Of a stretch of DNA of 24,722 nt, positions 16,879 to 18,026 are shown one piece after another. The stretch is from the UHGV virus genome UHGV-0103877, one strand, 5' to 3'. Each line of letters opens with the position of its first letter. The stretch's first letter is position 1. Origin of the DNA: a virus. Under the pieces are notes generated by a model that did not search any database, was not told the origin of the DNA, and saw nothing but the letters and a program-made list of their open reading frames with translations. Position numbers and translations under genes: made by a program.

Positions 16879-17040
16879 ATGGAAAAGAATGAAGTGAAGA
16901 CAACTCTTCGGTATCCGTACCGTTTTAAGGAGGAGGTGAAACGCATCGCTAAGGAAGAGGGGATGTCAGAAAACTCAGTGTTGGTTCAGGGACTTGCTTG
17001 GTGGTTGAAGTACCGGGAGAAAATGCGGAATGCTCTCTAA
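16879..17040 (+). CDS. arc: Arc-like ribbon-helix-helix repressor (53 aa)
   Basis: ORF MEKNEVKTTLRYPYRFKEEVKRIAKEEGMSENSVLVQGLAWWLKYREKMRNAL with strong AAGGAG RBS; same length as P22 Arc; too short for the ORF track; immediately upstream of ant. Confidence 0.55.
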   Translation: MEKNEVKTTLRYPYRFKEEVKRIAKEEGMSENSVLVQGLAWWLKYREKMRNAL

Positions 17041-17111
17041 AAATAACGAAGCCCCGACAGCGGGAACTGGCGAGGCTTCTACATCAACAAATCTGATCGG
17101 GAAATATTGAC
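17040..17111 (-). ncRNA. Predicted sar-like antisense RNA covering the ant ribosome-binding site
   Basis: Minus-strand extended -10 (TGcTATACT, plus coords 17118-17126) inside the first ant codons; minus-strand terminator (interrupted 12-bp stem at 17048-17079, then GTTATTTTTA) in the arc-ant spacer. Predicted transcript about 70 nt. Confidence 0.3.
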
Positions 17112-18026
17112 ATGAAAAGTATAGCAAAGGCACAAAACGATTTCACCATCTTCAAATTCGGCGACAGTGAAATCCGCGTCATCAACAAGTGCGGTGAGCC
17201 GTGGTTTGTAGCAAAAGATGTTTGTGATGCTTTAACTCTGACTAACTCACGCAAGGCACTTACTGCACTTGATGACGATGAAAAGGGAGTAACTTTAAGT
17301 TACACCCTTGGTGGTGAGCAGAATTTAAGCATTGTGAGCGAATCAGGTATGTATACATTGGTTCTGCGCTGCCGTGATGCCGTCAATAAAGGTTCAGTCC
17401 CGCACAAATTCCGCAAATGGGTGACAGCTGAAGTTTTGCCATCCATTCGTAAAACGGGGTCTTACGGAAATACACCGAAAGCTAAAAAGGCGTTGCCGGG
17501 TAAAATTACCACTGAACAGCAGGAAGCCATTAAACAACTCGTCATGAGTCGTGGTCAGTCTCTGCCAAAAGAAAAACAGGCGAAGGCGATGATCACCATG
17601 TGGTCGTCACTGAAATCTCATTTTGGGTGTTCATACAAAGAAATCAGTGAGGAGCAGTTTGCCGAAGCACTGTCACTTGCAGCTCGAGTTCCACTTGAAG
17701 GCGAGTTCGTCGGCAAACAAGAGAAGAAAACCAACGAGCTTTCTGCAAAAGAAGCAAACAGCCTTGTATGGTTATGGGATTATGCCAACCGTTCACAGGC
17801 ATTATTCCGCGAACTGTATCCGGCATTAAAACAAATTCAATCGAACTATTCCGGCAGATGCTACGACTACGGTCATGAATTCTCGTATGTTATCGGAATG
17901 GCGAGAGACGTTTTAATCAATCACGCACGAGATGTTGATATTAATGAGCCAGACGGACCAACGAATCTTTCCGCATGGATGAGACTTAAGAATAAAGAAT
18001 TGCCGCCTTCTGTTCATCTGTATTAA
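17112..18026 (+). CDS. ant: Antirepressor (Bro-N / AntA N-terminal domain)
   Basis: 304 aa; N-terminal [30 protein letters not shown] matches the Bro-N/Ant signature; follows the arc-like gene. Confidence 0.75.

Follow-up and report, generated by a model that had tools for sequence, protein, structure and literature searches.

A probable divergent allele of the antisense RNA gene sar in an immI-type module of an Escherichia coli prophage

We analyzed a 24,722-nucleotide (nt) stretch of the virus genome UHGV-0103877 (hereafter the window; all coordinates are positions within this stretch) and conclude that the minus strand between its arc-like gene and its antirepressor gene, ant, very probably carries a divergent allele of sar, as part of an immI-type module (mnt-arc-sar-ant) in an Escherichia coli prophage. 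Knowledge of sar dates back to 1987, and genes resembling it have already been noted in P22-like phages. In Salmonella phage P22 the gene yields an RNA of 68/69 nt, which forms base pairs with ant mRNA, hinders the initiation of translation and is required for the proper establishment of lysogeny (PMC12197685, PMC7968456). Small-RNA sequencing has picked up the P22 RNA as well (PMC13397905). Our statements on the biology of P22 rest on later open papers such as these and on GenBank annotation, for which we used record NC_002371.

The case for sar rests on homology and structure, because promoter and terminator motifs alone perform no better than chance. A covariance model (R2) was built from 37 relatives, including P22, with the window allele and its identical copies excluded to avoid circularity. 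When the whole window was searched with filters off, R2 matched 17040-17111 on the minus strand with 56.8 bits (E about 1.3e-11). The next match in the window scored 16.9 bits and lies on the opposite strand of the same hairpin. The allele of E. coli phage vB_EcoP_Kapi1 (Kapi1) bridges the window and P22, since it combines the stem of the 5′ hairpin (hairpin I) of the former with the 3′ hairpin (hairpin II) of the latter, and with this intermediate the R2 score establishes homology to known sar RNAs in both sequence and structure. In a permissive Rfam search of 16700-17400, the sar family (RF00262) ranked first, at 17044-17110 on the minus strand and over its full length (1-68 of 68). The other permissive matches, to ctRNA_pGA1, BcKCsr2 and mir-87, were rejected; they are weaker, cover only the generic terminator hairpin and lack contextual support.

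The 72-nt minus-strand RNA is predicted to fold into two hairpins with a minimum free energy (MFE) of -26.4 kcal/mol (z = -4.9), and none of 200 shuffled sequences was equally stable. The same pair of hairpins is predicted for P22 sar (-29.5 kcal/mol, z = -5.3), and in both RNAs the 5′ hairpin has an anti-Shine-Dalgarno loop and the 3′ hairpin has the form of a terminator; the P22 record annotates a sar terminator at 15021-15058. An initial annotation of the window had described an interrupted stem-loop followed by a T-run as a minus-strand intrinsic terminator. This structure is indeed present at 17079-17048, with 13 pairs counted around one C.U mismatch (GAAGCCUCG-C-CAGU / GCUG-U-CGGGGCUUC) instead of the 12 bp that had been given. 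Hairpin I, at 17111-17083, was absent from that description, and a 3-nt linker separates it from hairpin II. Past hairpin II, GUUAUUUUUA at 17047-17038 of the minus strand overlaps the TAA stop codon of arc.

A transcript of about 70 nt complementary to the ant ribosome-binding region had been proposed, and our prediction of 69-73 nt agrees with this. The predicted RNA runs antisense through the arc-ant spacer, from the ant start codon to the arc stop codon, and complements the entire 71 nt of this spacer (17041-17111) up to position -1 of the ant ATG. The UCCC in loop I complements the ant Shine-Dalgarno sequence GGGA, which on the plus strand stands 9 nt ahead of the ATG.

The extended -10 element (TGcTATACT) that had been claimed for the minus strand within the first ant codons lies at 17126-17118, in codons 3-5. 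The gene begins ATG AAA AGT ATA GCA, and the stretch AGT ATA GCA that makes up the element includes the rare Ile codon ATA. The predicted +1 is the G at 17111, 7 nt past the -10 on the minus strand. A putative leftward promoter occupies the first ant codons as does Psar, the sar promoter of P22, where the identical extended -10 (TTGCTATACT) falls within the stretch annotated as the promoter. A direct alignment of the window with P22, Kapi1 and Edwardsiella phage GF-2 shows an invariant TTGCTATACT.TTCATGT (TTGCTATA.T.TTCATGT) as well as an invariant hairpin II core.

This promoter-like sequence is maintained in quite different surroundings. Across 27 distinct upstream contexts the -10 is kept as TA.A.T, and the variant hexamers TATAGT, TAAACT, TAAAAT and TACACT all preserve these key positions. 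The extended -10 is retained before three unrelated Ant N-termini (MNSIAILEAVNTSYVPFNG, MKSIATAVSTINVPFHG and a third of 17 residues), and a -35-like hexamer is found at a distance of 17 nt in every coding context (GTGTTA in P22, TTGATA with the P22_AR_N-type ant, and GTGAAA). In the Ant protein of the window, a Bro-N domain replaces the P22_AR_N domain of P22 Ant, and the first five codons, M-x-S-I-A, which contain the sar promoter, are retained together with the P22_AR_C domain.

Relatives were collected by scanning viral contigs with a 16-base pattern for the -10/ant-start motif, which is biased toward alleles with that exact -10. Most of what the scan returned were chance matches, and the hairpin is present in 43 of its 120 loci. 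Adding P22, GF-2, Kapi1, the prophage of E. coli WS4437A-1 (locus L004; other L numbers below are likewise our locus labels) and the window to these 43 gave 34 distinct RNAs, and 32 of them fold unaided into the same two hairpins.

Covariation supports hairpin II. In a MAFFT alignment of 21 alleles it is 98.3% paired, and three pairs have changed on both sides. An alignment of 57 matches (44 distinct) gives 98.2% paired and seven of 14 pairs changed on both sides; this alignment, which underlies most of our pair counts, was fitted to the model structure and leans toward pairing, and the MAFFT-only count agrees with it. Compensatory changes include CG/UA/GC, UA/GC/AU and GC/AU. The observed values were reached by none of 500 shuffles, all slid controls fell far lower, and RNAalifold recovers the same helix. 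An earlier alignment (A3) held opposite-strand matches and was replaced (A4).

Hairpin I is more variable in sequence. When it is read in a single register in the MAFFT and model alignments, 61% is paired (53% after a slide of +1), a count that understates the hairpin because it occurs in two registers. We therefore assessed hairpin I from the folds of individual sequences, which lean toward pairing by construction. Its outer stem takes 12 distinct sequences among the relatives, including GUUGGU/ACUGAC, GUCAAUA/UGUUGAU, GUCGU/ACGAU, GUUCG/CGGAC and UGUCUA/UGGACA. In each of the 32 distinct regions the stem starts with nt 1 or nt 2, and in 30 of them it closes at nt 24-30; two GF-2-type alleles close it at nt 18. 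An anti-Shine-Dalgarno tetramer is present in the loop of 29 of the 32 distinct relatives, and the tails contain at least three U residues within 8 nt past the stem.

These data also bear on whether the conserved hairpin might instead act from the plus strand, in the arc-ant mRNA, as an attenuator, processing site or stability element, with the minus-strand promoter irrelevant. The complementary RNA does form a hairpin (-16.7 kcal/mol, z -2.1), and the covariance model gives weak plus-strand matches on the same DNA. However, in each of the 44 distinct alleles the fold of the sar strand is more stable than that of the complement, by about 10 kcal/mol (means of -29.2 and -19.3 kcal/mol), because G.U pairs of the minus strand turn into A.C mismatches on the plus strand. 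This bias points to the minus-strand RNA as the target of selection. Moreover, the hairpin is not followed by a U-run on the plus strand, where the next bases are TACATCAAC, and a plus-strand role would leave unexplained both the conserved extended -10 and the start of hairpin I exactly at the predicted +1. We therefore disfavor this explanation, which has only a small probability in our estimate, although the hairpin on the target side may still play a secondary part in the kinetics of pairing.

The boundaries of the conserved region suggest a further possibility. Homology to PhiR12, EC.P3 and Kapi1, whose arc genes are unrelated to that of the window, begins exactly at 17048, the foot of hairpin II, and other relatives similarly replace the sequence left of the terminator by unrelated arc 3′ ends. 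On the other side, contig L014 shares the sar and arc end of the window and carries another ant N-terminus from the TG of the -10 onward. Because mosaic junctions mark both edges, we define a conserved cassette of about 87 nt (approximately 17040-17126), which coincides with the interval singled out by the initial annotation. Such junctions would be expected if the cassette were kept mainly as a recombination linker for the exchange of arc and ant alleles, with antisense regulation being vestigial. A pure recombination site, however, needs no compensatory stem changes, strand-biased fold or anti-Shine-Dalgarno sequence in a loop, and the key -10 positions are retained even where the hexamer varies. 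We give the vestigial version little credence. A linker role is compatible with antisense regulation and does not replace it.

Several observations weigh against the assignment to sar. The score of the window allele against RF00262 is 28.5 bits (E 0.0016) relative to a gathering score of 43, which is the operational cutoff of the current Rfam model and not a biological property. The -35 is weak (GTGAAA, four of six positions), as is the ant Shine-Dalgarno sequence (GGGA), and the C.U mismatch of hairpin II is missing from common alleles. Between 16000 and 18500 there are two promoter-like sites where shuffles lead us to expect 3.6, and four terminator-like sites where 2.3 are expected. In addition, 41 of 100 shuffled versions of the window contain TGNTATACT one or more times, and the lean of the model-fitted alignment toward pairing must be counted here as well.

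The motif counts raise the possibility that the -10 is a by-product of ant codons and the hairpin an incidental palindrome, with no RNA being made, as promoter- and terminator-like matches are no more frequent than in shuffled sequence. Coincidence is nonetheless very unlikely to account for a whole 87-nt cassette that stays conserved although the genes on either side are exchanged, that shows compensatory changes and a strand-biased fold, and that has as its homolog an RNA detected by experiment in P22. Finally, it is scarcely credible that the promoter serves a small protein: the sole minus-strand open reading frame (ORF; 52 aa with a GTG start, 16975-17133) does exist, but it begins at 17133, ahead of the predicted +1 at 17111, and would thus be off the transcript, the terminator is inside it, relatives exchange its sequence left of the terminator along with the arc 3′ ends, and their substitutions follow stem covariation and are compensatory rather than codon-like, in keeping with the earlier statement that no ORF explains the promoter and terminator pair.

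The features of the locus are collected in the following table, with their counterparts in P22.

Table 1. Coordinates of the predicted sar locus in the window and corresponding positions in P22 (NC_002371)
Feature	Position	Strand	Basis or remark	P22 counterpart
Predicted sar-like antisense RNA	17040-17111	-	5′ end G 17111; 3′ end in U-run at about 17039-17043; about 69-73 nt	sar, 15021-15090 (-)
Hairpin I (RNA nt 1-29)	17083-17111	-	Fold; stem GUCAAUA/UGUUGAU, 15-nt loop	
Anti-Shine-Dalgarno UCCC in hairpin I loop (RNA nt 10-13)	17099-17102	-	Read from sequence	
Hairpin II (RNA nt 33-64), G+C-rich terminator stem, loop UCCC	17048-17079	-	Scan and fold; GAAGCCUCGCCAGU-UCCC-GCUGUCGGGGCUUC	
Terminator tail GUUAUUUUU	17039-17047	-	Last U residues complement AA of arc TAA stop codon	
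Extended -10 TGcTATACT, TGCTATACT	17118-17126	-	Consensus scan; inside ant codons 3-5 (Ser-Ile-Ala)	Psar, 15097-15125 (-), inside ant (window -10/-35 at 17118-17146)
-35-like hexamer GTGAAA	17141-17146	-	Consensus scan; 17-nt spacer to -10	
ant, 304-aa antirepressor, target gene	17112-18026	+	Bro-N and P22_AR_C domains	ant start, 15091
arc-like gene, 53 aa, ribbon-helix-helix	16879-17040	+	PHROG 582 Arc-like repressor, E 1.6e-10	arc, 14861-15022
mnt-like Arc-family repressor gene, divergent, 106 aa	16456-16776	-	Pfam Arc 69.9 bits; RefSeq name 'Arc family DNA-binding protein'	
Operator-like repeats, mnt-arc intergenic	16796-16858		CAATGATGGCATATTGCT twice and imperfect palindrome ATGGCATATTGCTTT/AAGGCATAATGCCAT	

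The predicted RNA agrees with annotated P22 sar in position, strand, size and architecture, as had been proposed for its size and position. In both phages an antisense RNA of about 70 nt, predicted in the window, lies in the arc-ant spacer with its 5′ end abutting the ant ATG, an identical extended -10 is found in the first ant codons, and an anti-Shine-Dalgarno sequence in loop I is combined with a G+C-rich terminator as hairpin II. The two alleles differ in the hairpin I stem (GUUGGU/ACUGAC in P22 and GUCAAUA/UGUUGAU in the window) and its loop, in the linker (4 nt in P22), and in the U-run, which is CUUU in P22 and a longer UUAUUUUU in the window. Hairpin II of the window differs from that of P22 at six positions. 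It shows a single U-A to A-U swap, wobble changes confined to one side at three pairs, and the C.U mismatch.

The closest common relatives of the window allele are those of the Kapi1 and O157:H7 type, with 80-90% identity (448 records). These alleles, found in P22-like and Stx phages of E. coli and including the common O157:H7 prophage allele, agree with the window in the stem of hairpin I, in the promoter and in the Bro-N-type start of ant. However, they carry the hairpin II of P22 and pass the Rfam threshold, whereas hairpin II, loop I and the tail of the window are particular to it. A sar-like match to the window query is found in 464 of 5,426 complete E. coli genomes, which hold up to three sar-like places each. 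The window allele itself is rare, and only 13 of the 469 matching records have at least 95% identity to it. In the records of Kapi1 (L003, 1499-2443) and GF-2 (L002, 1744-2619), the ant coding sequence (CDS) is annotated from 66-81 nt upstream of the conserved ATG, over the arc end and the whole sar region, and the start was probably called too far upstream.

The distribution of the RNA was also viewed from the side of its presumed target. When one genome per species was scanned for relatives of the window Ant, 41 loci emerged, and in 13 of these the covariance model found a sar-like element that is antisense and ends at the ant start. These loci are from Mangrovibacter, Brenneria, Erwinia (two), Klebsiella grimontii, Mixta, Morganella, Providencia, Lonsdalea, Izhakiella, Yersinia (two) and Pasteurella. 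The model found no sar-like element beside the Bro-N-only relatives from distant phyla among the 41 loci, and the RNA therefore tracks the immI context rather than the Bro-N domain itself.

At the gathering threshold, Rfam yields no match in the window. The threshold is passed by P22 (97.8 bits), Kapi1 (72.4 bits) and the loci L024, L013, L036 and L119. Like the window, six clear sar relatives fall below it, namely GF-2 and the loci L005, L028, L081, L097 and L106. The RF00262 model thus has a narrow reach and covers only part of the family. A literature search for the Rfam accession of sar returned no match.

By analogy with P22, a sar-type RNA in the window most likely blocks translation of the neighboring ant. 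We infer the firing of the promoter, the end of the RNA and the block of translation initiation from the P22 experiments. A sigma-70 promoter with an extended -10 in the first ant codons would fire leftward to produce an untranslated RNA of about 70 nt, ending at a hairpin and U-run that abut the arc stop codon. This RNA would be perfectly complementary to the spacer of the arc-ant mRNA, with hairpin I displaying the anti-Shine-Dalgarno sequence in its loop, opposite GGGA (17099-17102). Pairing would then hide the ribosome-binding site, so that transcripts escaping repression by Arc or Mnt would yield no Ant. Because the module lies in a late operon, the RNA would also silence ant on read-through late transcripts.

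The pairing site of lambda OOP RNA is the 3′ end of cII, with RNase III cleavage as its mode of action, whereas sar covers the ribosome-binding region. Like sar, OOP (directed at cII) and IS10 RNA-OUT (directed at the transposase ribosome-binding site) are short antisense RNAs that extend from promoter to terminator opposite their target and act by pairing, but they have no sequence or structural homology to sar. This comparison follows the lists given in two papers (PMC3134472, PMC7968456) as well as general knowledge.

The surrounding genes have the order and orientation of the P22 immI module, with a short arc and an ant encoding a P22_AR_C domain, preceded by an Arc-family repressor gene in divergent orientation, and the N-terminal domain of Ant differs (P22_AR_N and P22_AR_C in P22, Bro-N and P22_AR_C here). 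The C-terminal 190 aa of Ant are 62% identical to P22 Ant. The arc-like protein, with a Pfam Arc score of 17.5 bits, is under the cutoff of that family and has 38% identity to P22 Arc over 29 aa; its gene is presumably the upstream gene of an arc-ant transcript. As in P22, where the module lies within the late operon (PMC2629481, PMC12111858), the immI-like module of the window is located inside an operon of tail genes and on the same strand as these genes.

The phage as a whole is unlike P22 in that it has a contractile tail and an E. coli host. The window is 99.9% identical to the prophage of E. coli WS4437A-1 (NZ_CP035822), whose genes include those for a Q antiterminator, lambda-type lysis and a contractile tail with its baseplate. 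The tail genes that flank the module are those of a lambdoid prophage, whose contractile-tail and baseplate genes include baseplate J/gp47 and DUF2612, and not of a P22-like podovirus. In WS4437A-1 the integrase gene intS adjoins purK. The RefSeq record of this prophage has no RNA feature at the sar locus and labels arc as 'hypothetical protein'.

The region between the mnt-like and arc-like genes contains CAATGATGGCATATTGCT as an exact 18-nt direct repeat (16796-16813 and 16823-16840), and the imperfect palindrome ATGGCATATTGCTTT/AAGGCATAATGCCAT spans 16828-16858. By analogy with Oarc and Omnt of P22, we presume that these sequences are candidate operators for the two ribbon-helix-helix repressors, in a Pant/Pmnt control region. 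No sigma-70 promoter in this intergenic region exceeded the threshold of the consensus scan. A 14-nt imperfect direct repeat inside arc (16926-16963, TAAGGAGGAGGTGA/TAAGGAAGAGGGGA) is rich in Shine-Dalgarno-like sequence, and we suggest no function for it.

Two further features were observed nearby. The mnt-like gene (end 16456) and a P63C-domain gene (end 16440) converge on a strong hairpin, GAAACCCACC-GTCA-GGTGGGTTTT at 16445-16468, which is followed by T-rich sequence on the plus strand and may terminate both genes. Downstream of ant, a second antirepressor-like gene (PHROG 1726) is split by an in-frame TAA (18296-18298) into ORFs at 18026-18298 and 18332-18838. At 18296 the prophage of WS4437A-1 has CAA (Gln) and a single 242-aa CDS, and the TAA is either a nonsense mutation or a sequencing difference.

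The biological gain from this finding is small, in that it is an ordinary and correct find of a divergent sar-family member missed by standard annotation. Its value for annotation is that the window allele and at least six clear relatives lie under the Rfam sar threshold, and that a wider model finds the RNA beside ant in at least 12 genera of Enterobacterales, and also in Pasteurella. The RNA travels with antirepressors that have unrelated N-terminal domains, and it does so in a contractile-tail phage rather than one with a P22-type tail. The same cassette may double as a crossover point for the exchange of arc and ant modules.

Because the sequences of loop I and hairpin II diverge while the structure stays the same, in a cassette of about 87 nt that moves between arc and ant genes, we tentatively raise the possibility that sar alleles form specificity classes, even though we consider this on balance doubtful. 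The rare allele of the window would then repress no ant mRNA other than its own and fail to recognize that of the common allele, and vice versa. If true, such classes would constitute a layer of antisense 'immunity' among co-resident prophages. The allelic diversity of sar offers a simple system for the specificity of antisense RNAs among prophages that share a host cell.

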